Shown here: piece by piece, positions 18,536-30,361 of the stretch
How the letters are laid out: each line of letters begins with the position of its first letter
Numbering within the stretch: position 1 is the first letter of the stretch
Virus record (IMG/VR): IMGVR_UViG_3300037321_000115
Direction: 5' to 3' (one strand)
Source of the DNA: a virus
Lineage: Duplodnaviria; Heunggongvirae; Uroviricota; Caudoviricetes
Length of the DNA: 64,000 nt
Position numbers and translations under genes: made by a program
The notes under the pieces: model-generated
Database searches by the model: none
Seen by the model: the letters and a program-made list of their open reading frames with translations, nothing else
Told to the model about the DNA's origin: nothing

Positions 18536-18898
18536 ATGGCAATTTTAATAGGAAGTATTAACATGTCGAAGCGCACAGGTACAAACTCTGAACACGATGC
18601 AAACGGTGATGGAAACATTGATAGCGAAGAAATAAAAAACATGGAAAAGCTCACATCAATCGAAAATGCAGACAAAAAGGAGGATGCTCAGCGGAAGATG
18701 GCGTGGGTTGCTATTGGCGGGATGGTTACCTATCCGCTGCTTGTGATAGGTTTGACTGTGACGAGTTTCGACGCTTCTATTTTAGCATCGATGGCTGACT
18801 TGTATTTTATATCTGTGGCAGGTATTGTGGCTGCGTTCTATGGCAAAGAAGCATATATGAGCATACGAAAAGGCTCCAATAACAACGATAGCTTCTAA
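18536..18898 (+). CDS. membrane protein with EF-hand-like loop (possible holin)
   Basis: [12 protein letters not shown] loop followed by two TM helices; TATAAATA at 18507-18514 on the + strand. Confidence 0.6.
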
Positions 18899-20112
18899 GA
18901 GCGGCCGAGTGTGCACCTATGCCAAAGTTCGTCCATCGCCTGAACCAGATGGTCTATTTGGCCAATGCTGTGAACAGGAGAAGGCGTGAACCGAAGTCTC
19001 TCAGTTCCGCGTGGGACCGTAGGAAAGTTGATAGGCTGCACATAAATTCCATGTTGTTGTAGTAACATGTCAGACAATGCCTTACAGTGGATGGGGTTGC
19101 CTACATGTACAGGAACAATGTGACTGCCGTTATCAATCAAAGGTAGTCCAATCCTTTTAAAGTGTCCTTTCAACATGTTGACACGAAGTAGGTGCGTGTC
19201 GCGCATATGTTGCGCGGTTTTCAAATAACGTACTGATGCTGCTGCCCCAGCAGCAACGGCAGGAGGCATAGAGGACGTAAATATAAATCCTGGCGCATAA
19301 GATCGTATTGCGTCGCACATCTTGGCTGATCCAGCGATGTAGCCACCTGCCACGCCGTAGGCTTTGGCCAATGTACCGTTGATAATATCAATTCTACCCA
19401 TCAGACCGTCACGCTCACATACGCCTGCTCCACGTGGCCCGTACATGCCGACAGCATGTACCTCGTCAATGTACGTAAGAGCGTTAAATTCATCCGCAAG
19501 ATCACATATTCTTTCTATCGGTGCAAAATCACCATCCATCGAGTATATAGATTCGAATGCAATTAACTTTGGAGCAGATGGATCGTCAGCAGTAAGTAGA
19601 TCACGTAGATGGTCAACATCGTTGTGCCTAAAGATACGCTTTGCGCCACCATTACGTCTCATGCCCTCAATCATCGAAGCGTGATTCAGCGCATCGGAAT
19701 ATATGATGAGGCCTGGAAAGAGCTTGGGCAACGTTGACAATGTAGCATCGTTGGCATTGTATGCTGAGGTGAATACAAGAGCAGCCTCTGTCTGATGCAA
19801 ATCAGACAGTTCCGCTTCAAGTCTGCTGTGGTATACTGTGGTTCCTGATATGTTTCTCGTGCCGCCTGAACCTGCTCCTGTTGCCTCAAGTGCAACAGCC
19901 ATTGCCTCTAAAACCACAGGATGTTGACCCATGCCGAGATAATCGTTGCCACACCACACAACAATGTCTCGACGTTCTCCATCCATATCGTACCACGTAG
20001 CGGTAGGATATGCACCCCTTTTGCGCTCAATATCAACAAACGTCCTGTAACGTCCCTCTGAACGTAGAAGGTTCAAGGCAACATCAAGTCCTGATTCGTA
20101 GTTCATGTTCAC
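18895..20112 (-). CDS. hemA: 5-aminolevulinate synthase (Shemin/C4 pathway)
   Basis: [47 protein letters not shown] (PLP lysine), [27 protein letters not shown]. Confidence 0.96.
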
Positions 20113-20144
20113 TCTCCAAGAATACAGTAGCCATTCGGACGCGA

Positions 20145-20285
20145 CTATTTATCCCTAAGTTGTTCTTGAATGTTTCTTCTGACTTCATCATCCAGAAGGT
20201 GGTTATAATGTGTTAACAGCTGACGCGCAACACTCCGTTCTCTTGCTTTAACGTATGATACAAAGAAGTTTTTTATGTACTTCAT
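20145..20285 (-). CDS. 46 aa hypothetical protein
   Basis: [46 protein letters not shown]; ATGA overlap with the upstream DUF1127 gene. Confidence 0.55.
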
Positions 20286-20440
20286 CGCGATTCTTGACCA
20301 GATAAAGGCGGACACGACATTGCTACGTTTCTTATATCGCCTCGTGTGATTCCTATGTCCTTCAACTGGTTGTCTGTCATTTGTGACAGATCTTGAACCA
20401 CTCGTAAGTATGTAAAGTAATCGCGTATCGTTTTGAACAT
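20282..20440 (-). CDS. DUF1127 (YjiS-like) small protein, 52 aa, not in the ORF track
   Basis: Manual translation [52 protein letters not shown]; L..M.D..LKDIGI.R.DI signature; purine-rich RBS AAAAGGGAAA. Confidence 0.8.
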   Translation of the reverse strand: MFKTIRDYFTYLRVVQDLSQMTDNQLKDIGITRGDIRNVAMSCPPLSGQESR

Positions 20441-20806
20441 CGTCGTTTCCCTTTTGCACGTGTATGGCGATATTTATTCCAGGGAAACGGAAAAAGCCTA
20501 GGCTTTTTAGGAACATCAGCCATACCCTACAGGGGTGACTCTTTCCTATTTGCCTAAGCGTCTTTTAAATATTCTATGTGCTTGTTTAATAGAAACGTCT
20601 TCTGAACTCTGCACACCTTGCCAAACAGAGTCAGGATTTGTGTCGCTGTCTAATGCCCTGCTCGAGGTGTCGTATCTCTCCATCAGATGTATAATAATAA
20701 TAAGCTGGAGTCGGTTTAAGATCAGATGGCTTTTTCTGATCGTTTTGTTGAACATGATACTTCACCCACTTTTGCATGTGAAGGAGCCATTACAGCTCCC
20801 TTGTTT

Positions 20807-22375
20807 TTAGCGTATGAAATTGATCAGTTGTTTCTGACCGTTGTTGTATAGTAAACAACAAGTCTGGGTCCATGAAGACGGACCTCTGTTGTATCTCATG
20901 TTAAGATCAGAAAGGGTTCCGACTCTAAAGATTGATCTTTGTATTGCTGCAGAGTGCGTATGTCCCGTGACACTATCACCGTAAATCTTCTCCAACGAGT
21001 TCAGAGAACACTTGGCTCCGTTCATGCCAAGATCACCGTGCGCGGCGCATTCGACACCGCCAATCCTCAGAGAATCTTCACGTGAAAGAAATCTCCAGTT
21101 GTTAGGAACAGTCTCAACGAGATTCATAGCAGCCTTTAGCACATCTTCACCCTCGTCAAAAAGCGTCGGTGCTATTCTCAAGCTGAATAGATGGTTCTTA
21201 GGATCCTCAACATACGTGCCTGCTGCAAGATAACGATCGAGAAACTCATCGTGGTTTGATTTGACGATGTTCACGGTCGTTGGATTTAATTTGTCCGCAA
21301 CGTACTTGACTGTGTCAAATGTCAAAAGCACCTCTTCTTCTAGTGAATCTGCCCCTTTATTTGATCTAGCAGCCTTCTCGGCAATGTCTTTAACGTGATG
21401 ATTTATTGAATATGCGTCAAAGACATCATGGAGAAAAATGCAATCAACCTTCAGGCTCTTGAATTTTTCTATGAAATAATCAAGAGCCTCCTTATCAATA
21501 AACGTCGAGTGTAGATCGCCAAGAATGACGTTGACAGGAACTTGCAACATAGTACCATCAGAGTTGTATTGTGTCCCCACATCAATAAAGGATCCGTCTG
21601 ATGCAGCTTGAATCTGTCTAAAATCAAACTTGGTTTCGTTTTCAATATCAACAATGATTGCACCGATTGTGTGGTCTGATTCTGCAATATATGAAAGACG
21701 CTTTGATACAAACGTGTCTGTATAGTATGATGATTTTGTACACGCACCAGGCGTCATGATAGCATAGTTCTTACCACGGTTGTTACCTGATGGAACATAC
21801 TCAAGGAACTGTTTTGGGCTTGCGAACACATACGAACCTTCACGATTTCCAAGACGTGAAAGGCCTGTGATTGATTTGATCTGTTTTGCAGATACCTGAA
21901 TGCTACACAAAGAAAAATTGCTGTTGAGCTGAACATCGCTATTGACAACTCTAAAGTGTGCTTCGTTGAAGATCGGATCAAATGTTGCGGTCTTTTTCTC
22001 GAAACTGTTGGTAACACTTTCGCAAGGCATGATTACGAGCTGTGCACTGTTCGTATCGCAATATAGCTTTAAAGCAGCAAGGAAATTTTTATCGGCAGGT
22101 GAGTCAGCAACTGCTGTCGTAATCACAAACTTGGTGGTTGATACGTCAATTGATCGATTAGGATCAAAAATGCTTTCCACTGTAGAGAAGTGCACCTTGA
22201 GCTCCTCTTCGTGTGTTTCTCTCATCTGTGCGTGTAGATTTTCGATGCCACCAAAGTGGTGTCTGATAGTACTTCTCGAAACATCAAGTGCAAGAAAATC
22301 GTTGTAGACAGGGAGATCTTTCTTTGTCTCAACAATTTTCAAATATAACCCAACAAGGTTCTCATCTGTATCCAT
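20807..22375 (-). CDS. calcineurin-like metallophosphoesterase with N-terminal extension
   Basis: GDLH, HDVFD, SNHD, HGD and GHTHS metal-binding motifs. Confidence 0.8.
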   Translation of the reverse strand: MDTDENLVGLYLKIVETKKDLPVYNDFLALDVSRSTIRHHFGGIENLHAQMRETHEEELKVHFSTVESIFDPNRSIDVSTTKFVITTAVADSPADKNFLAALKLYCDTNSAQLVIMPCESVTNSFEKKTATFDPIFNEAHFRVVNSDVQLNSNFSLCSIQVSAKQIKSITGLSRLGNREGSYVFASPKQFLEYVPSGNNRGKNYAIMTPGACTKSSYYTDTFVSKRLSYIAESDHTIGAIIVDIENETKFDFRQIQAASDGSFIDVGTQYNSDGTMLQVPVNVILGDLHSTFIDKEALDYFIEKFKSLKVDCIFLHDVFDAYSINHHVKDIAEKAARSNKGADSLEEEVLLTFDTVKYVADKLNPTTVNIVKSNHDEFLDRYLAAGTYVEDPKNHLFSLRIAPTLFDEGEDVLKAAMNLVETVPNNWRFLSREDSLRIGGVECAAHGDLGMNGAKCSLNSLEKIYGDSVTGHTHSAAIQRSIFRVGTLSDLNMRYNRGPSSWTQTCCLLYNNGQKQLINFIR

Positions 22376-22908
22376 TACGCTGTGTACTCCTCACTCTTGA
22401 TTTTAATAGAAAGGATAGACTCGAGAGCAAATGTTCTCAGTATAACCTTGTCGTCAATTCCACCCTGAGATTCCACTTGTGTTTCGGTCTTCTCTTTCGG
22501 ATCGTCCAAACCTTCAACGTCTTTCCTGTCAATAGGCTCATCGTCAAGGAAGTATGAAGATGTCCCTGCATTAATGAAAAAACACTCGAGGTAATACTTA
22601 CCGTTGTGTTCAATGAACGGGCTATTGTCAATACGCTTGCCCCATGGCCTTGGCTTGAGTACAAATGTCTCTGGATCTTTGCCTTCTGCAACCATACGAC
22701 GCTTGACCATGCCTTCATATCCATTAACAGACGAGTTGGAAAACAACATGATGTTTGCCTTCTCTGTAGTTTTGGTAACACGACCTTGCTGCAGGTTCTT
22801 CTTGCCACCCTTGAGCTTGACAGAGGTCTTTGTAGTCAGACCAGCAAACGTGGTTCCTTTGATCGCGTCAATCTGCTTCTTCAGTACATCATAGTCAATC
22901 ATCTTCAT
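22375..22908 (-). CDS. conserved phage hypothetical protein
   Basis: YEGMVKRR..AEGK, PRPWG.RI.NSPFIEHNGKYYL; a late promoter at 22928 suggests a start downstream of the ORF-track start, so the start is approximate. Confidence 0.65.
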   Translation of the reverse strand: MKMIDYDVLKKQIDAIKGTTFAGLTTKTSVKLKGGKKNLQQGRVTKTTEKANIMLFSNSSVNGYEGMVKRRMVAEGKDPETFVLKPRPWGKRIDNSPFIEHNGKYYLECFFINAGTSSYFLDDEPIDRKDVEGLDDPKEKTETQVESQGGIDDKVILRTFALESILSIKIKSEEYTA

Positions 22909-22997
22909 TTCCTTTCGGCTGTGTTTGTATTTATAACTCAACGCGTTGAGCTGTTACCTAATCATAGCGCGCCTCTACACAAAAGGCAACTATCTTA

Positions 22998-23612
22998 TCA
23001 TATGAATCCGTCTGCCTTAGTTTTCTTCCAAGAAGGTTTCATTCTAAATGATTCCTCTTGTCCGAAGTTAGAGGTATCAAACGTAGGCTTATCCTCATCC
23101 TCTCGTGGTTGTTGTTTTTTCCTTGTCTCGTTTTGAACATCGCTCTGCGCACCTTCTTCCAAGTCATACAGCTTCATTTTTGATCTGTCTATTCCAACAA
23201 CAAACCGTCTATAGAATCCAAGATCGCCCCATCTGTTTTTTAACTGCTTGATCATGATTTGGCCCATCGCCTCCAATTCTTCTGAAGAGATCAAGCCGAG
23301 GATACAATCCGCAGTGTGAGCAATCCCCATGCTGTTTTTTGTCAAGATGTTGTTGCAGTAGAACAATTGACTACCTGTTACAGATATATCTACCGTTTCC
23401 ACCATGCCGACATTCTCAATTTCTACAATGGTATCATTATAATCAATTTTACTGTCTTCAACCTGTTGCTTCTCCTCCTTCTCCATCTCCATGCTTATCA
23501 GCAGATCTGTCAGGTCAAACAAGTCCATCTCTTTGGTCATGTTATTGGCGATCATATGATGAGCTTTAACAAAACAATCGTTCTGCATCTTTTCCATTTG
23601 GCTGTCGTTCAT
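22998..23612 (-). CDS. gp41: replicative helicase C-terminal fragment fused to split-intein IntC
   Basis: 93 aa IntC ending VETVDISVTGSQLFYCNNILTKN, then extein SMGIAHTAD..LKNRWGD..RFVVGIDRSKMKLYD. Confidence 0.92.
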   Translation of the reverse strand: MNDSQMEKMQNDCFVKAHHMIANNMTKEMDLFDLTDLLISMEMEKEEKQQVEDSKIDYNDTIVEIENVGMVETVDISVTGSQLFYCNNILTKNSMGIAHTADCILGLISSEELEAMGQIMIKQLKNRWGDLGFYRRFVVGIDRSKMKLYDLEEGAQSDVQNETRKKQQPREDEDKPTFDTSNFGQEESFRMKPSWKKTKADGFI

Positions 23613-23615
23613 ATG

Positions 23616-25001
23616 TTAATCCTCTACCACATTAAGACTGTAACCTACATTTAGTCCCTGACTGACAGATAGTCGCGACACAACACCGTCGTTTGACATA
23701 GATGGAAATACGTGATCCTTACTGACAGTGATTGACTTGCCGCTGTTCATTTTAATCTTGACACAGTCCTTCATCTTAGGATGGTGGACCATCGTGACTA
23801 GCTTTGTACTGTCTTCGCTTTTAATTTTGTCGCCTGGTTTCAGGTCAGATATGCATCTCGACGTTCCGTCACTCATGGTAACTGTTTCTTTAACGTAGAT
23901 ACATTCAGACGTGTTTGTGAGGTCAACGTCGCTCGAATCGTATGCTCCGCGGTTGTACTGACTTGACGATACAATAGGACAATCAAACTCCATTGCTAAA
24001 CCACGTATTTCCTCAGCGATTGACTTGACCAGCGTGTATGAGTTTGCGGCTGCTGCACCCTTCACACGAGAAGATGCACAGATGTTGAGATAATCAATGA
24101 AGATAATATCAGGAACAAACCCCTTCTTTAGTTTCAGCTCATTGAGAAGATGTCTAAAGTGTCCTGCGTGAGCAGACCCTGTAGGGTATTCTTTGACTAC
24201 AAGTTTTCCGGGCGTTCTGCTTTTAACCTTGGCAATTCTTGTATTGAACATTTCTCTGGGCATTTCTCGTAGCTGATCAATTGTGACGTCTAATAGATTA
24301 GCATCAATACGTTCTGCAATTCTCTCCTCAGCCATCTCAGCTGTTATGTAGAGGACGTTCTTGGCATGCATAAGAGAAGCTGCAGCCATGTGACATTTCA
24401 TCAAACTTTTGCCACCACCTGTGGTCGCTAAAATCAACGTCAAGGATTTGCGGGGCAGTCCACCCTTAGTGATTTGGTTCAACAGATCAATGTCAAAAGG
24501 AATTCGCTCTTCTGTGCGATGATAGAAATCATAACGACTGTCTGCATCTTCAATATAATCATGCCCAATGTGACTATCAAAGTTGATTCCAAGCGAATCA
24601 GACAACAGCTTAGGAATAGCACCCTTGTCAAACTCTTTGTCTTGCCCATCAAGAATCAAAATTGCTTTTCTAATTGAATTGAACAGATCCTTGTCTTGGC
24701 AGAACTTCTCTGTCTCGCCTAAAAGCCAATCTTGATTAGTTGCTGCATCAATCTTCAACTCGTCGATGGCTGTATTAACAGCTTTAAACAAATCCTCGTT
24801 GAGATCTTTACGTGCCTCCAGCGTAATCTTGAGAGCCTCAATTGAAGGTGGTTCTTTGTATGTACTGACATATTCAGAGAAAGATGCAAATATCTTTTTG
24901 GTAGCAACATCATCAAAATACTCTTCTTTGATGTATGGGATGACTTTGCGACAAAACTCCCCATTGTAAAGTAGATTAGCAAGAATAGTTTGCTCTATCA
25001 T
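23616..25001 (-). CDS. gp41: replicative helicase N-terminal fragment fused to split-intein IntN
   Basis: Walker A ATTGGGKS, IFIDYLNIC, SQYNR, extein ends DLTNTSE; 95 aa IntN CIYVKE..VSKDHVFP..GLNVG then stop. Confidence 0.93.
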   Translation of the reverse strand: MIEQTILANLLYNGEFCRKVIPYIKEEYFDDVATKKIFASFSEYVSTYKEPPSIEALKITLEARKDLNEDLFKAVNTAIDELKIDAATNQDWLLGETEKFCQDKDLFNSIRKAILILDGQDKEFDKGAIPKLLSDSLGINFDSHIGHDYIEDADSRYDFYHRTEERIPFDIDLLNQITKGGLPRKSLTLILATTGGGKSLMKCHMAAASLMHAKNVLYITAEMAEERIAERIDANLLDVTIDQLREMPREMFNTRIAKVKSRTPGKLVVKEYPTGSAHAGHFRHLLNELKLKKGFVPDIIFIDYLNICASSRVKGAAAANSYTLVKSIAEEIRGLAMEFDCPIVSSSQYNRGAYDSSDVDLTNTSECIYVKETVTMSDGTSRCISDLKPGDKIKSEDSTKLVTMVHHPKMKDCVKIKMNSGKSITVSKDHVFPSMSNDGVVSRLSVSQGLNVGYSLNVVED

Positions 25002-25072
25002 CAGGACCTCTTGTTATAATGGAAATGGGATGGGCAGAGTATCACTCTGCCCATCATTCAATTGTACACTGT

Positions 25073-25672
25073 TTATTCGTATGTGTCCATGTCCATTTCC
25101 ACATCTGCATCATCTTCTCCGTGGCTGTCGTCCGACTTCTTTTGAGTTGCAGACAGTTTGAACTTGCGCTCTACAAACTCTTTGAAATCCACGTTTTTAA
25201 CAAGTTTTTCAAAAAAAGCATTGTTAGTAACCACATCTGCCTGACGATAGTTCTTCTCGTCTACTTCGCCTGTCTCAGGATCAACAAGATTGTACCAACC
25301 AACCTTCGGTTTCGTGATGAAGCCAGATTCCATTGCAATGTCGAAGATTGCAGTCCACTTTTGTATACCATCCTCATACATTACAGTGAATGGTAGTTTA
25401 GATTTCTCTTTGACGTAACGTGACTTCTCAATGTTGATTGTGAACTTCCATCCTGCAAGCTCAGTTCCGTCTTTCTCTTGTGACTTGCTGATGATGAACA
25501 CAGTATTTGCTGAATACATGATTCCCGTCCCACCACTAACAATGGCCTTGGGATATAAGGAATTGTGTGCAATTACTCCGTTGTCAAGCTCAAAGCAATG
25601 GTCTTCCTCTACAGTTATGTCGTATATTGGAAACGGATCGACTTTTTTAATTCCAGTAAGAGTTCTCATCAT
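25073..25672 (-). CDS. uvsX: RecA-like recombinase C-terminal fragment fused to split-intein IntC
   Basis: 37 aa IntC MMRTLTGIKK..IYDITVEEDHCFELDNGVIAHN, then extein SLYPKAIVSGGTGIMYSANTVFII..KSRYVKEKSK. Confidence 0.93.
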   Translation of the reverse strand: MMRTLTGIKKVDPFPIYDITVEEDHCFELDNGVIAHNSLYPKAIVSGGTGIMYSANTVFIISKSQEKDGTELAGWKFTINIEKSRYVKEKSKLPFTVMYEDGIQKWTAIFDIAMESGFITKPKVGWYNLVDPETGEVDEKNYRQADVVTNNAFFEKLVKNVDFKEFVERKFKLSATQKKSDDSHGEDDADVEMDMDTYE

Positions 25673-25883
25673 TTACCTTTCGTTTTACAATTGTCAAAAT
25701 GCCACCTCTTAAATGCAGAGGGCATTCCTGTTGATTTCTTGTTACAGTGTGGACAAATTGCCACATCATACACTTTAGTTTTTTCTTTGTAGTTTCTATA
25801 GCAATCTTTAATATTAACATCTAATAAGATTTCATCTGCTTCTGATTTACTGACATCAATATCTCGGTATGTGTCTTAATCAT
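25669..25883 (-). pseudogene. frameshifted or truncated remnant of a free-standing homing endonuclease gene
   Basis: Strong SD AAGGAG + ATG at 25883, frameshift within a few codons, then ..ICPHCNKKSTGMPSAFKRWHFDNCKTKGK-stop, a zinc-finger tail typical of phage homing endonucleases. Confidence 0.7.
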
Positions 25884-25887
25884 GAGC

Positions 25888-25928
25888 TTCTCCTTTTATT
25901 AACCATGCTTATTTTTATAAAAGGAGAA
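25888..25928 (-). promoter_or_regulatory. RBS-sequestering hairpin with embedded late-promoter-like motif
   Basis: 12-bp perfect inverted repeat TTCTCCTTTTAT/ATAAAAGGAGAA whose 3' arm contains the SD of the remnant gene; TATAAAAATA overlaps the 5' arm. Confidence 0.7.
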
Positions 25929-25942
25929 ACTTCATGTATGGT

Positions 25943-26815
25943 TTACCTAAATTTGGTACCCATATTCATACTTCCAGCTTCGACCCAGTTTCCGAACACA
26001 TCAAGAAACTTGTGGTCGTTGGTACACCTGACAGTAGAGCCATCATCAAACTGCAATTCGAAAAATTCTTTGTCTTCCGAATCCAATCTTTCAGGTCCAA
26101 GCGTATCAAGCACTTTTTGCATACCGTTCTGAGTATAAACCATGTCACCAACATTTATGTCCTTAATGTTGATAGAACCTCTGTTGGTTTTCACGAGCGT
26201 ATCACCAGCTAAACATTGCTCCAGATATACGTGATTCACTGCAAGGCACGGAATTCCTTTAGTTGTCAGGTATGGCGTGATGATACGAAACAACGACTTC
26301 AAGCTCTTGGCACGTGACATGTCCGCGACAGACTTTTCGTTTTGTGCATCTTCTAGCTCTTTCTTAGATGCAAGGTTGCCGACCGAGTCAATCATGATAA
26401 ACACTTTGTCTTTTTTGCCAATCGCATCTAACTTTTGAACCATATCGAACTTGAGCTCCTCCACATCCTTGACGGGAATGTGAACAACGCGATCAATGTC
26501 GATGTCGATGCTCTCAATGTACTCTGGTGTAATACCAAACTCAGAGTCATATAGCAGCGCAATGCCCTCAGGGTACTTGTCCAAATATGCCTTCATGCAG
26601 TAGAGGCTCAGTAGAGTTTTGAAGCTCTTTGATACACCTGCAACAACAGTCAATCCTGGTAGAAGCCCACCATCAATAGATCCACTAAATGCAATGTTGA
26701 GAATTGGGAGGTCGGTAGGAATTGCTTCCTTTGCATTGAAAAAGGGCGATGAGGATAGAACAGCAGAAGATTTGGTACTCCCCGTGCTTAGCATCTTTTC
26801 AAGTAGTGTACTCAT
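25943..26815 (-). CDS. uvsX: RecA-like recombinase N-terminal fragment fused to split-intein IntN
   Basis: GVSKSFKT Walker A, YDSEFG, IDSVGNLASKKE, extein ends VNHVYLEQ; 90 aa IntN CLAGDT..CTNDHKF then stop. Confidence 0.93.
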   Translation of the reverse strand: MSTLLEKMLSTGSTKSSAVLSSSPFFNAKEAIPTDLPILNIAFSGSIDGGLLPGLTVVAGVSKSFKTLLSLYCMKAYLDKYPEGIALLYDSEFGITPEYIESIDIDIDRVVHIPVKDVEELKFDMVQKLDAIGKKDKVFIMIDSVGNLASKKELEDAQNEKSVADMSRAKSLKSLFRIITPYLTTKGIPCLAVNHVYLEQCLAGDTLVKTNRGSINIKDINVGDMVYTQNGMQKVLDTLGPERLDSEDKEFFELQFDDGSTVRCTNDHKFLDVFGNWVEAGSMNMGTKFR

Positions 26816-27090
26816 TTTTTATGTTTCCCTTCTGTGATCATTTTCAAACGTGTCTTAAATTCAGTAATCTTTTCCACTCTATCAGGCCAAAGAATAGTAG
26901 ACCTGCTTGGGTTTCTGCATAAGTTGTCAAGAAACGGAGTGATGGTATCATATAGAAGATCTACACGTGATTGCAATTCTTCCATCTCTTCTTTGTGTGA
27001 TGAATGTTCTTTGAGTTTGGCTTCAACATTCTCGTCAACGAACGAAAATCCGAAGTCAAACTCAACATCTGAGTCTGTCTTTTTTGTCAT
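26812..27090 (-). CDS. conserved T4-like hypothetical protein
   Basis: FDFGFSFV and PFLDNL..NP....I.WPDR motifs. Confidence 0.7.
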   Translation of the reverse strand: MTKKTDSDVEFDFGFSFVDENVEAKLKEHSSHKEEMEELQSRVDLLYDTITPFLDNLCRNPSRSTILWPDRVEKITEFKTRLKMITEGKHKK

Positions 27091-27116
27091 AATGTGATTT
27101 TTCTAAATGATAATAG

Positions 27117-27150
27117 GCGAGGCTGCTGTTTCGAAACAGCAGCCTCGCCT
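27117..27150. terminator. terminator after gp32
   Basis: GGCGAGGCTGCTGTT-tcga-AACAGCAGCCTCGCC long perfect hairpin. Confidence 0.75.
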
Positions 27151-27157
27151 CTATATC

Positions 27158-28078
27158 TTAATTGTCGGCGAGATTGCGGAAGAATGCCAAATCGTCGTCT
27201 GTATCAGCGGACGGGGACGTGTCAGAAGTAGAGCTCTTCTTTTCAGGTTCTTCTGAAACGTTGCTGAGTTTACTCATGTCGAGGTCCTCGTCAACCATAT
27301 TCTCTGCAGTTGAATTGTTACTTTCACCGAGGTTGCCTGAAACGCCAAGCACTTTGTGGAGACGTGCCTGCAGATCATCGTATGTTTTGAACTGTGAAGG
27401 TGCAATCAATTCTGCAAGAGAATTCAGCTGCTTGTACGTCTCTTCAAGCTTGACTTCGTCACCATCGTACAGTTGAGACGCTTCTTCCCACTCTGAACGA
27501 TCATAGTTTGGATAGCCTTCATATTGACGAATCTTCAGTTTGAAGTTAGCACCTTCCCAGAAGTCGAATGGGTTGATTGGCGTTTCGTCTTCGAACTGTG
27601 GCTTCATCATGTCGTTCAGCTTGTCAAAGATCTTTTTACCGTACGCGTAAAGAAAGACCTTGCCTTCGTTTTCAGGTTCAGCTGAATCTTTGACGACGAG
27701 AATGTTCGAATGGTACTTCAGACGACGCTTCTGCTTGCGAACTTGCTCTTTGTCAGCTTCGTTCCCTGTATTCCACAGCTTTGCGTTGAATTTGCCCAAC
27801 GGATCATCTTGTCCAATAGTGGACAAAGACTTCTCGATGTACCATCCACCTGTACTCTTAAATGCGTGATCCCACACACGAACGAAAGGAACGTCATCAC
27901 CCTCTGCAGCAGGCAGAAAGCGAATGATTGCGAATCCATTACCTGCAGTGTCGCGAGTAGGGGTCCAGTATTTTTCTTTGAGGGGATCTGCGAAGCCTTT
28001 TGAGGCCATCTTGTCAAGCTGTGACGAAAGTTTGTCCAGTGAGCTTGAACGGTTCTTCTTTAAATTTGCAAAAGACAT
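27158..28078 (-). CDS. gp32: single-stranded DNA-binding protein
   Basis: AIIRFLPA, WYIEKSLSTIGQDDP, GKVFLYAYGKKIFDK, PFDFWEGANFKLKI, acidic tail ending DDLAFFRNLA. Confidence 0.96.
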   Translation of the reverse strand: MSFANLKKNRSSSLDKLSSQLDKMASKGFADPLKEKYWTPTRDTAGNGFAIIRFLPAAEGDDVPFVRVWDHAFKSTGGWYIEKSLSTIGQDDPLGKFNAKLWNTGNEADKEQVRKQKRRLKYHSNILVVKDSAEPENEGKVFLYAYGKKIFDKLNDMMKPQFEDETPINPFDFWEGANFKLKIRQYEGYPNYDRSEWEEASQLYDGDEVKLEETYKQLNSLAELIAPSQFKTYDDLQARLHKVLGVSGNLGESNNSTAENMVDEDLDMSKLSNVSEEPEKKSSTSDTSPSADTDDDLAFFRNLADN

Positions 28079-28177
28079 TAATATCTCCTTGTTTTGCGAT
28101 GTATGAATTTGATATGACAGTTTTGCGTAACCTTCTGCAGCTACGAATGTATTTATGTGGTTTTTTGGAGAGTTTAG

Positions 28178-28780
28178 TTAGAAGAATCGATCTTTTATCA
28201 CTTTTGTTACTTTTTCTTTTGAGTATACAAGAAATGGGTGATACTTGTCGATCTTCAGTGTTATATCAGGAAACAGAACTTTGTCCGTTACTGTCTTGTT
28301 CCAATATGCTTGGCTGTTAGTCATCTTTGTAATTATCGTAAGTAGTTCAAGTGTGATCCGCTTTTGAAGATAAAGATTGACTATGTGTGGATATTGTCCG
28401 TTGTCCACTTTGAAGTTTGATTGCAGATCGTCGTCCAGATCGCTCAATCCTTCTTTTACGTGGTGAGTGATTGCGCTTTGTTTTTTGGCCCAATCTGTAT
28501 GAACCGCACGTGCTGAATCGTCTAACAATTGACCTGCCCAGATCTTGGGATTGAGTATGACATTTGATAAAATCAAACCTTCGTAATCTTTTTGTTTGCC
28601 CATCCGTTGAAATGTAAAGGCGTCCTTTCTGTGGACAAAACTTTCAAAAGATGCATTGACTTTTCCGTTGTACTTGTGGTAGTCGTAAGATGGAGTAGTA
28701 AAGTGTCGCTTCAGAGCAAGATAAGTTGTGTATGCTTTAAAGCCTGTTTCATTCAAAGAAGTGTGTTGAAGTAGTATCAT
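28178..28780 (-). CDS. gp59: helicase loader
   Basis: YLALKRHFT...YDYHKYNGKV...F..RKD, ITLELL. Confidence 0.9.
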   Translation of the reverse strand: MILLQHTSLNETGFKAYTTYLALKRHFTTPSYDYHKYNGKVNASFESFVHRKDAFTFQRMGKQKDYEGLILSNVILNPKIWAGQLLDDSARAVHTDWAKKQSAITHHVKEGLSDLDDDLQSNFKVDNGQYPHIVNLYLQKRITLELLTIITKMTNSQAYWNKTVTDKVLFPDITLKIDKYHPFLVYSKEKVTKVIKDRFF

Positions 28781-29066
28781 TGTTCTTTAGTAGTCTCCTA
28801 TTCTTTGCCTCAACCCTGATCTTTTCCTTGATGGTAGGTGACTTCTTGATGATATCAGCCACAGCTTCTATTTCGAGGTTGTGCTCCTCAGCATATTCCA
28901 CCAAAGCGTCTATGTAGGACGCTCCAATCGCCAATCGCTTTTCAATCGCGAGGTGAATGCGTTCAGGTGTTTGAGTATCTAAGGTTGTCATGTCCATATT
29001 AAATTTTGCAACTTTCTGCACGTATGTTCCTGTGCGCCTGTAAAACCAATTTGAAATGCCCTGCAT
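28749..29066 (-). CDS. gp33: late-transcription coactivator
   Basis: SYIDALVEYAEEHNLEIE.V..II...IKEKI..EA; true start may be the downstream Met. Confidence 0.8.
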   Translation of the reverse strand: MQGISNWFYRRTGTYVQKVAKFNMDMTTLDTQTPERIHLAIEKRLAIGASYIDALVEYAEEHNLEIEAVADIIKKSPTIKEKIRVEAKNRRLLKNNDTTSTHFFE

Positions 29067-29197
29067 GCACGGCTCGCATCTTGTCTTGAAGAATACATGT
29101 CTGCAAATATGACATATTCATAATGACCTTCACTCAACTTTAGACGGACAAACAATTCTGTAAAATCTACTTCATAGTTGCCATATTTTTCAACCAT
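28988..29197 (-). CDS. hypothetical protein
   Basis: 69 aa ORF in the co-directional run. Confidence 0.45.
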   Translation of the reverse strand: MVEKYGNYEVDFTELFVRLKLSEGHYEYVIFADMYSSRQDASRACRAFQIGFTGAQEHTCRKLQNLIWT

Positions 29198-29393
29198 TCA
29201 ACACGTTAATCGCTGCTAACCAACTCGCTGCTGCGCTTTCCACAAATTTCGCAGTCTTATCAGGGTAATCTTCGCTGTTGACTTGATTGCCGTTGACAAA
29301 GTATTTTATAGAAAACATTGTGTCGGTATGGTGTATCTGTGCCTCGAAGGACACATTATCTGCTTCTTTCATGTGCGTCTTTACAATTGCCAT
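29190..29393 (-). CDS. hypothetical protein
   Basis: 67 aa ORF with upstream GGA RBS. Confidence 0.55.
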   Translation of the reverse strand: MAIVKTHMKEADNVSFEAQIHHTDTMFSIKYFVNGNQVNSEDYPDKTAKFVESAAASWLAAINVLNG

Positions 29394-29504
29394 AAAAAGT
29401 TTTTCCTTCCTGTCGCTCAGCTTATACTGAACTGTGTTACGTGAAACTAGATCAAGGACATCTTACACCGAGATGGTCGATGTTCGGGATACGACTGTAC
29501 ATCT

Positions 29505-30140
29505 TCATTTAACGAAGAATCCAATCCTTGGTTTCAACAAGAAACCATCTGCATCGTCGGGGGCATTGATATAAGCATACCCGTTTTTCTGTAGTATATC
29601 AACAACTTCTTCGTTCTTTTCCCACAGAGGGATTAAAAAATTATATTGAGGATCAGGACTGTCACGAAGGTGAACTTCAATTATTTTGTCGCCTATAAAC
29701 TCCACATTGAACGAAGGAACCTTTACCAAGTCGTTATACAGAAACGACGGTATCTCAAAATTGTCACGTTCGATCTTTTTCCAGGACGTGAACGTGGACA
29801 GATCTGTCGGGCTATTGAACCCTTGATAGCACGATATCTGAACTACAACACCACCATTCACAGCATATGAAACAGAACAATGTGGTCCTTCAAACCATTC
29901 GCACCAGAAGTGACCTGGTGGCACTTTGCACAACTCGTCCTCGTCCATCCAGATTTTCTCTGCACCTACCCCCATTCCACGCAAGTTCATGATGGGCCTT
30001 GAAACAAACCATCCTGGCGTTTCAGGTCCTACACCACCAGGTCCGCAATGGTAATTGAGATTCTCTGCAAGCCACAGCTTATTGAATAAGTGTACGAGGT
30101 TGGGATGTTCACGATATGCTTTACTGTCGTCGTCGTTCAT
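29505..30140 (-). CDS. conserved T4-like protein, possible ATP-grasp-like fold
   Basis: FNKLWLA..L.Y.CGP.G, RPIMNL.GMG.GA, FWCEWFEG.H.SV, NVEFIGDKIIEVHLR. Confidence 0.65.
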   Translation of the reverse strand: MNDDDSKAYREHPNLVHLFNKLWLAENLNYHCGPGGVGPETPGWFVSRPIMNLRGMGVGAEKIWMDEDELCKVPPGHFWCEWFEGPHCSVSYAVNGGVVVQISCYQGFNSPTDLSTFTSWKKIERDNFEIPSFLYNDLVKVPSFNVEFIGDKIIEVHLRDSPDPQYNFLIPLWEKNEEVVDILQKNGYAYINAPDDADGFLLKPRIGFFVK

Positions 30141-30361
30141 ATTATACTCCCTAGAACACGGCCGTTTTTATGGTTTGGTCTATCTTTTTAGAGGGCTGCT
30201 CCGCGTCGCCTTATAACAGCGGCTCTGGTCGCACCATGACGACGCAGGTCTCGCCGATATTCGCCTTACCAGCAAACCAGTCGCGCAGCGTCATGCCGTG
30301 CTCTGCACAAGGGGCGTGCGGCTCGTTAGAGTGAGGGATCGGGAACGCGGCCCCACCGCTG

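Follow-up and report, generated by a model that had tools for sequence, protein, structure and literature searches.

The closest described counterparts of the locus reported here are the fractured gp41 genes of Dassa et al. 2009 (PMC2677866), with their split inteins gp41-1 to gp41-9. In these loci the T4-like gp41 helicase is encoded by two adjacent open reading frames (ORFs), which carry the N- and C-terminal parts of an intein (IntN and IntC) and enclose a free-standing homing endonuclease gene (HEG), either Vsr-like or GIY-YIG. One allele (gp41-7) is devoid of the HEG, a hairpin with a late-promoter-like motif precedes the HEG, and uvsX lies upstream as an intact neighbour. We analysed a stretch of 64,000 nucleotides (nt) of viral DNA (Caudoviricetes; IMG/VR record IMGVR_UViG_3300037321_000115), hereafter the window, which resembles these loci. 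In contrast to the loci of Dassa et al., however, its uvsX gene is broken in two as well, by a different split intein, and its gp41 IntC carries a conserved two-helix extension of 56 amino acids (aa) and ends in KN instead of HN.

Fractured uvsX genes are also found in GenBank records of many cultured Straboviridae, among them Yersinia phage vB_YenM_TG1, Shewanella phage Thanatos-1 and Proteus phage Pm5461, where the pieces are annotated simply as two recombination proteins. As in the window, two ORFs bear an IntN and an IntC, and a GIY-YIG Seg-like HEG stands between them; its tail (CPxCNK...HFxNC) resembles that of the HEG relic described below. Unlike in the window, gp41 is intact in these phages, their inteins are only 32–36% identical to that of the window, and they are integrated at GG/TG (slashes mark insertion points), 11 residues downstream of the Q/S site used here. 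In cellular genomes, bacterial DnaB carries inteins at motif H4 (sites a and c) and at the P-loop (site b), and RecA inteins are known too (Novikova et al. 2016, PMC4760082). They likewise cluster in conserved DNA- or ATP-binding motifs of replisome RecA-fold ATPases, several per protein being possible (PMC6195587), but are contiguous and splice in cis.

When we searched the literature for a described uvsX split intein or for fractured genes next to each other, only Dassa et al. 2009 mentioned uvsX, as the intact neighbour. No paper on an adjacent double fracture or on a three-piece UvsX was found, most subscription journals lying outside the search. Atypically split 'VidaL' inteins of UvsX and of a T4-like helicase were reportedly described from Antarctic Lake Vida metagenomes by Thiel et al. 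in 2014 and Burton et al. in 2020.

All five elements of the split-gene module were detected in the window, co-directional and on one strand (Table 1). The preliminary description of this DNA, made without database searches, had read here two different split-intein pairs in adjacent genes; both pairs are complete, and this anatomy is borne out element by element. We conclude that both genes are very probably of the kind that Dassa et al. 2009 called fractured genes, whose products would be trans-spliced by orthogonal split inteins that arose after invasion by HEGs. The halves of each gene are adjacent and point in the same direction; those of uvsX enclose the trace of a HEG with its hairpin, and relatives hold a HEG at the very point where gp41 is split.

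Table 1. The split uvsX–gp41 module: elements, subdivisions and RNA hairpins, with positions in the window.
Feature	Position	Strand	Description
Split-gene module	22998-26815	minus	uvsX-N+IntN, decayed HEG, IntC+uvsX-C, gp41-N+IntN, IntC+gp41-C
uvsX-N ORF	26815..25943	-	200-aa N-extein and 90-aa IntN, the latter starting CLAGD
uvsX N-extein	26216..26815	-	200 aa; Walker A and B; ends AVNHVYLEQ; Pfam RecA, PHROG UvsX-like
UvsX IntN	25943..26215	-	90 aa and TAA stop; Cys1; block B TNDH
RNA hairpin	25881..25936	-	ribosome-binding site (AAGGAG) of HEG relic lies base-paired in it; TATAAAAATA motif at stem top
Relic of free-standing HEG	25669..25883	-	ATG and 5 conserved codons, frame break, last ~64 codons
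uvsX-C ORF	25672..25073	-	37-aa IntC ending AHN, then Ser+1
UvsX IntC	25562..25672	-	37 aa; block F IYDITV; ends IAHN
uvsX C-extein	25073..25561	-	162 aa and stop; starts SLYPKAIVSGGTG; Pfam T4_UVSX_C; alignment
GC-rich hairpin	25029..25055	-	12 bp; in 71-nt uvsX–gp41 spacer; no U tract behind
gp41-N ORF	25001..23616	-	366-aa N-extein and 95-aa IntN, the latter starting CIYVK
gp41 N-extein	23904..25001	-	366 aa; DnaB-like helicase; ends DVDLTNTSE; Pfam DnaB_C, DnaB; PHROG_19; alignment
gp41 IntN	23616..23903	-	95 aa and TAA stop; Cys1; block B SKDH
gp41-C ORF	23612..22998	-	93 aa ahead of extein, ending LTKN, then Ser+1
gp41 C-piece N-terminal extension	23445..23612	-	56 aa; two predicted helices
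gp41 IntC core	23334..23444	-	37 aa; block F VDISV; ends ILTKN
gp41 C-extein	22998..23333	-	111 aa and stop; starts SMGIAHTAD; PHROG_19; alignment

The intein junctions were located by a script after aligning the four ORFs to UvsX and gp41 of Synechococcus phage S-CREM1 and of phage DLP_6, which are not interrupted. The joined exteins of both proteins align without gaps to these references, the predicted spliced products being a UvsX of 362 aa, joined at LEQ-SLY, and a gp41 of 477 aa, joined at TSE-SMG. Pfam gave sub-threshold Hint and Intein_splicing matches at the expected places, and the solved structure nearest in sequence to either intein is that of gp41-1 (6QAZ). Both inteins are split at the canonical endonuclease-insertion point, which typically yields an IntN of ~90–100 aa and an IntC of ~35 aa, apart from the added extension on gp41 IntC.

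Judged by its sequence, the UvsX intein is canonical throughout. Cys1 stands directly behind the N-extein (LEQ/CLAGD), and the end IAHN/S shows the penultimate His, the terminal Asn and Ser+1. Same-site alleles are present in three related loci (L086, L092 and L093; loci are numbered with the prefix L throughout), with 53–59% identity in IntN and 67–75% in IntC. The Q/S insertion point lies four residues past the NH(V/T)Y strand, in the loop known in RecA/UvsX as the DNA-binding loop L2. The gp41 intein sits 18 residues past the Q of SQYNR and just ahead of S-x-G-x-x-x-T-A-D; the order of motifs suggests that the latter is motif H4 and that the TSE/S site is equivalent to the H4 site of DnaB. 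Both insertions had initially been placed just after the strand that follows Walker B, which holds for uvsX but not for gp41, where the site is further on, at the next, H4-like motif.

The 270 nt that separate the uvsX halves contain, in this order, a Shine-Dalgarno sequence with an ATG, five codons (MIKTH), a frame break and a 68-codon open frame. At exactly this position, L086 and L093 hold an intact HEG of 340 aa. The relic matches only its residues 9–13 and 277–339 (42–44% identity, E 3e-18), so that an internal deletion of ~260 codons has taken place. Its tail is zinc-finger-like (CPHC...RWHFDNC) and finds further matches in endonuclease families of PHROG and at the C-terminal end of a GIY-YIG HEG, that of Yersinia phage TG1; with these matches, the HEG relic named in the preliminary description is confirmed. 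In Pfam, the 340-aa HEG itself gave only a chance-like match to DUF1104. The TGA of the relic overlaps the IntC start, coupling uvsX-C to the relic upstream (ATGATG/TGA). The hairpin ahead of the relic has a minimum free energy of −21.9 kcal/mol (z −5.66), and none of 200 shuffles folds as well. A hairpin with a late-promoter-like motif has been described ahead of the HEGs of fractured genes (PMC2677866), and the regulatory layout here is the same. In L092 this uvsX HEG has decayed as well, independently of the case seen here.

In the gp41 intein, Cys1 again directly follows the N-extein (TSE/CIYVK). Block B (SKDH) has Ser in place of Thr, and at the end (ILTKN/S) the Asn and Ser+1 are present and Lys replaces the penultimate His. 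These features are shared by six diverged same-site alleles, all of which keep Cys1, SxxH with its invariant S and H, the block-F Asp and ILTKN/S. Inteins without the penultimate His are known. The TAA that ends IntN is followed by a single codon (CAT) and then by an ATG in the same frame, with GAGGA 7 nt ahead of this ATG. Pfam matched no family in the gp41 C piece.

The gp41 intein is under strong purifying selection, as judged by codon comparison with L085, a relative of ~90% identity: dN/dS is 0.07 for IntN, 0.02 for the extension and 0.07 for the IntC core, with 0.03–0.05 for the exteins. By the same kind of evidence, strong purifying selection acts on the family of uvsX inteins at the Q/S site (dN/dS 0.03 for L086 vs L093). 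Between the window and these alleles, synonymous sites are saturated (pS 0.76–0.85, pN 0.26–0.30).

A model of the complex of gp41 IntN with the C piece gave an ipSAE of 0.75, against 0.00 for the best control; among solved complexes 58 of 80 attain this mark, among mismatched pairs 2 of 110. The runs agreed in no less than 92% of contacts, with a partner pLDDT of at least 78. The model supports binding of the two pieces, but it may only reflect likeness to known examples, since split-intein complexes have already been solved. The confident interface spans residues 49–93 of the C piece and leaves out its first ~48 residues, for which AlphaFold2 predicts two helices (pLDDT 80–86). The 56-aa extension is kept in all same-site alleles, with or without a HEG, and bears the motif MD-I/L-F-D-L-T-D-L-L-I. 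Looking up 60 aa of the extension in the ESM Atlas returned only generic helical matches (<0.9), and single-sequence AlphaFold2 prediction of the gp41 intein read through the TAA (translation table 6) was unusable, with a mean pLDDT of 30.

The window gp41 intein does not appear to be an allele of gp41-1. In L018–L022, L029 and L103, gp41 is interrupted after residue 354, 12 residues upstream of TSE/S, with an HNH/NUMOD HEG. This is presumably the gp41-1 site, as it would fit the gp41-1 exteins (SGY/SSS).

The most informative relative is L085 (IMGVR_UViG_3300022837_000097), an independent contig collinear with the window at ~90% DNA identity over 30167..26225 and 25528..20001. It shares the gp41 split, and its uvsX N-extein is 99% identical; within the compared region the two differ solely in 26224..25529, which is the uvsX intein cassette. 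There, L085 carries another intein family at GG/TG, the site of many cultured Straboviridae, 11 residues downstream of Q/S. Two near-identical phages thus hold different inteins in one loop, and intein turnover is caught in progress. A chimeric assembly, which could have brought the two split genes together artificially, is contradicted by this collinear and independent contig with the same gp41 split, and by at least six more contigs in which both genes bear split inteins.

Two further observations concern the uvsX cassette of L085. In the differing segment (L085:5085-5817 opposite window 26224..25529), extein codons at the sites differ as well (LEQ-SLYPKA vs SEIGIFPKA), as would be expected of a co-conversion tract. 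Between the two halves of uvsX, the spacer (L085:5400-5700) holds a short NRWHGEKCKSK remnant, suggesting a second, independently decayed HEG.

The preliminary description knew of no comparable arrangement and proposed to survey related genomes for co-occurring splits. In such a survey, both genes proved to be broken by split inteins in at least seven environmental contigs besides the window, L085 included; each single split was moreover already known (PMC2677866; GenBank phages), so the arrangement is not unique. We denote the uvsX sites Q/S and GG/TG as a and b, and the gp41 site after residue 366 as site 366. L085 and L150 have uvsX split at site b and gp41 at site 366, and L147 and L151 share this pattern with a HEG in each gene. 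In L092, uvsX is split at site a and holds a contiguous mini-intein at site b, with gp41 split at site 366. L148 and L149 combine a contiguous uvsX mini-intein at site b with the gp41 split at site 366; L146 has the same mini-intein and an intein-free gp41. UvsX is encoded in three pieces in L093/L094, with HEGs at both sites a and b, and in L145, where gp41 is split at a further site. In L093:2578-6543 and L145:6001-9858, two different split inteins stand 11 extein residues apart, each with a HEG, and the middle ORF of 140–144 aa consists of an IntC, 11 aa and an IntN. Some relatives reach four split inteins across the two genes.

The presence of HEGs varies too in this group. At the split point of the window gp41, where the window has none, a HEG is present in L008, L092, L094, L147 and L151, and L008 and L009 are the HEG-bearing and HEG-less forms of an otherwise near-identical gp41 locus. 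The gp41-site HEGs are Vsr/DUF559-like (~360 aa), those at uvsX site b GIY-YIG/I-TevI-like. Among 92 loci scorable for both genes, 75 have an insertion in neither, 8 in gp41 only, 5 in uvsX only and 4 in both; these counts are no frequencies, because the sample was picked by likeness to the C pieces of the window.

A second gp41 insertion, after residue ~192 and near the Walker A loop, was seen in L093 (6601-7236/8032-9153) and L094 (1550-2185/2981-4171). The N piece continues only ~17 residues past the extein, whereas in the following ORF ~130 residues precede it. This P-loop-proximal insertion resembles an intein split at an unusual point, which leaves a very short IntN.

Four intein fragments encoded by co-directional genes are probably present together in one cell, and the preliminary description had left two outcomes for them: strict orthogonality, or cross-splicing into UvsX-N/gp41-C and gp41-N/UvsX-C hybrids as a form of post-translational domain shuffling. 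Common to both inteins are Cys1, Ser+1 and gp41-1 as the nearest solved structure, which would favour cross-reaction. Yet the two are only 20% (IntN) and 25% (IntC) identical to each other, so that strict orthogonality is expected: Pinto et al. 2020, who tested split inteins in a 24x24 matrix, saw negligible cross-reaction and hence orthogonality for 15 of 16 unrelated ones (PMC7090010). Their set also brings several pairs side by side, though it is a laboratory collection of pairs of unrelated origin, whereas that of the window is natural and encoded in one gene cluster. Hybrids would moreover combine half of the recombinase core with half of the helicase core at positions that do not correspond, and two essential proteins would be wasted. 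That relatives tolerate three to four split inteins in these genes argues for selection for orthogonality, and the three-piece UvsX of L093 and L145 could not work unless its pairs were orthogonal. Taken together, low identity, published orthogonality and the three-piece UvsX make cross-splicing very unlikely, and of the two outcomes we favour orthogonality.

It is also conceivable that no splicing takes place. The pieces could reassemble non-covalently, for which the intein-less split NrdA of phage Aeh1 sets a precedent of functional genes in pieces (PMC10448857, PMC3045599), or one gene could be dead, with host RecA or DnaB as a substitute. The missing penultimate His of the gp41 intein agrees with this. 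Against it, all nucleophiles and terminal Asn residues are kept, invariant across diverged alleles, and an unspliced HINT domain of ~130–190 aa would be expected to lie in the path of DNA in these ATPase-core loops. With dN/dS of 0.02–0.07 on the intein parts and 0.03–0.05 on the exteins, pseudogenes are excluded. We therefore regard unspliced function as distinctly improbable; neither pair looks dead, going by splicing residues, selection and the gp41 complex model. Alternatively, the gp41 break might not be real: TAA, one codon and ATG share a frame, as would be the case if a sequencing error or a read-through stop interrupted a contiguous, cis-splicing intein. The same stop-codon-ATG layout, however, recurs in the independent contig L085, other alleles carry spacers of 45–100 nt or a whole HEG at this place, a ribosome-binding site precedes the ATG, and none of the 12 tRNAs in the window is a suppressor. 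The gp41 IntN has 22 database relatives, all of them N pieces too (370–482 aa) and none contiguous. A contiguous gp41 intein is thus scarcely credible.

Conditional splicing as a switch that couples recombination and replication had also been raised in the preliminary description. Controlled by redox, metal or DNA, it would make both processes depend on the state of the infected cell. The M. smegmatis DnaB intein acts as an oxidative-stress sensor (PMC6195587), and there is work on the M. tuberculosis RecA intein; both precedents are cis-inteins in the same protein families. Extra cysteines are conserved in both inteins of the window (CT(N/H)DH and DHCFEL in UvsX, KxC and FYCN in gp41), as is the two-helix extension of gp41 IntC; these are the only features to which the idea could be tied. 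On the other side, near-identical phages differ in their inteins and HEGs, which are gained and lost, and in 75 of 92 related loci both genes are free of insertions, so that no general regulatory need is apparent. Such a switch would be an addition to trans-splicing by fractured genes, with which it is compatible, rather than a replacement. It stays speculation on which the sequence speaks neither way, and we consider it unlikely.

Three points weigh against two trans-spliced, co-expressed fractured genes. The uvsX intein of the window is without a close relative, and purifying selection on it is deduced from its family because the nearest relative is only 53–59% identical. The gp41 intein is non-canonical in its penultimate Lys, its block-B Ser and its 56-aa extension. 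Lastly, the strong hairpin between uvsX-C and gp41-N (spacer fold −25.2 kcal/mol, z −4.09) could make the expression of uvsX and gp41 independent of each other; terminator calling gave no terminator there. This hairpin could be a candidate processing, stability or attenuation element.

We now propose a course of events for the locus. In each ATPase, a mini-intein would have settled in a conserved DNA-binding loop and then been cut in two by a free-standing HEG, which later decayed in uvsX and was cleanly lost from gp41. The four polypeptides would be translated separately from the co-directional genes of the replication/recombination module; each IntN would pair with its own IntC, fold with it into a HINT domain and trans-splice, giving the UvsX and gp41 products predicted above. 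The two pairs appear unrelated enough to be orthogonal, so that no hybrids would form. Selfish elements would thus have repeatedly invaded two neighbouring hot-spot genes, with no designed coupling between them.

The window belongs to a large contig of a T4-like phage: the contig listed in the database for its UvsX-N protein measures 263,791 bp. It has ~42% G+C, and nearly all genes are on the minus strand. The host is probably an alphaproteobacterium. The module around the split genes comprises a gp33-like late coactivator, the gp59 helicase loader, gp32 followed by a terminator-like hairpin, a 92-aa ORF, uvsX and gp41. The closest cultured relatives of gp41, in Synechococcus myophages and Stenotrophomonas phage DLP_6, are only ~55% identical, and no near-identical DNA was found among GenBank phages. 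Elsewhere in the window, positions 18895-20112 (-) hold a 5-aminolevulinate-synthase-like aminotransferase gene. In L146, L147, L148 and L151, this replication module is immediately preceded upstream by heme oxygenase and bilin reductase genes.

The double split is real and recurs in relatives, and the known dynamics of selfish elements account for it, with no new mechanism. New here are the insertion sites, uvsX Q/S in the L2 region and gp41 TSE/S near motif H4, the long and conserved gp41 IntC with its two-helix extension and penultimate Lys, and the natural multi-intein sets. A further proposal, possible but doubtful, is that a marine T4-like clade maintains co-evolved natural sets of two to four orthogonal split inteins, in which the extension controls when or where the helicase is completed. 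If so, the extension might gate association of the pieces, bind a replisome partner or make splicing conditional. Orthogonal and fast-splicing pairs are in demand for protein engineering, and this locus and its relatives would offer natural orthogonal sets from one cell. Altogether, it appears that selfish elements can go very far in fragmenting two central phage DNA-transaction ATPases without killing the phage.

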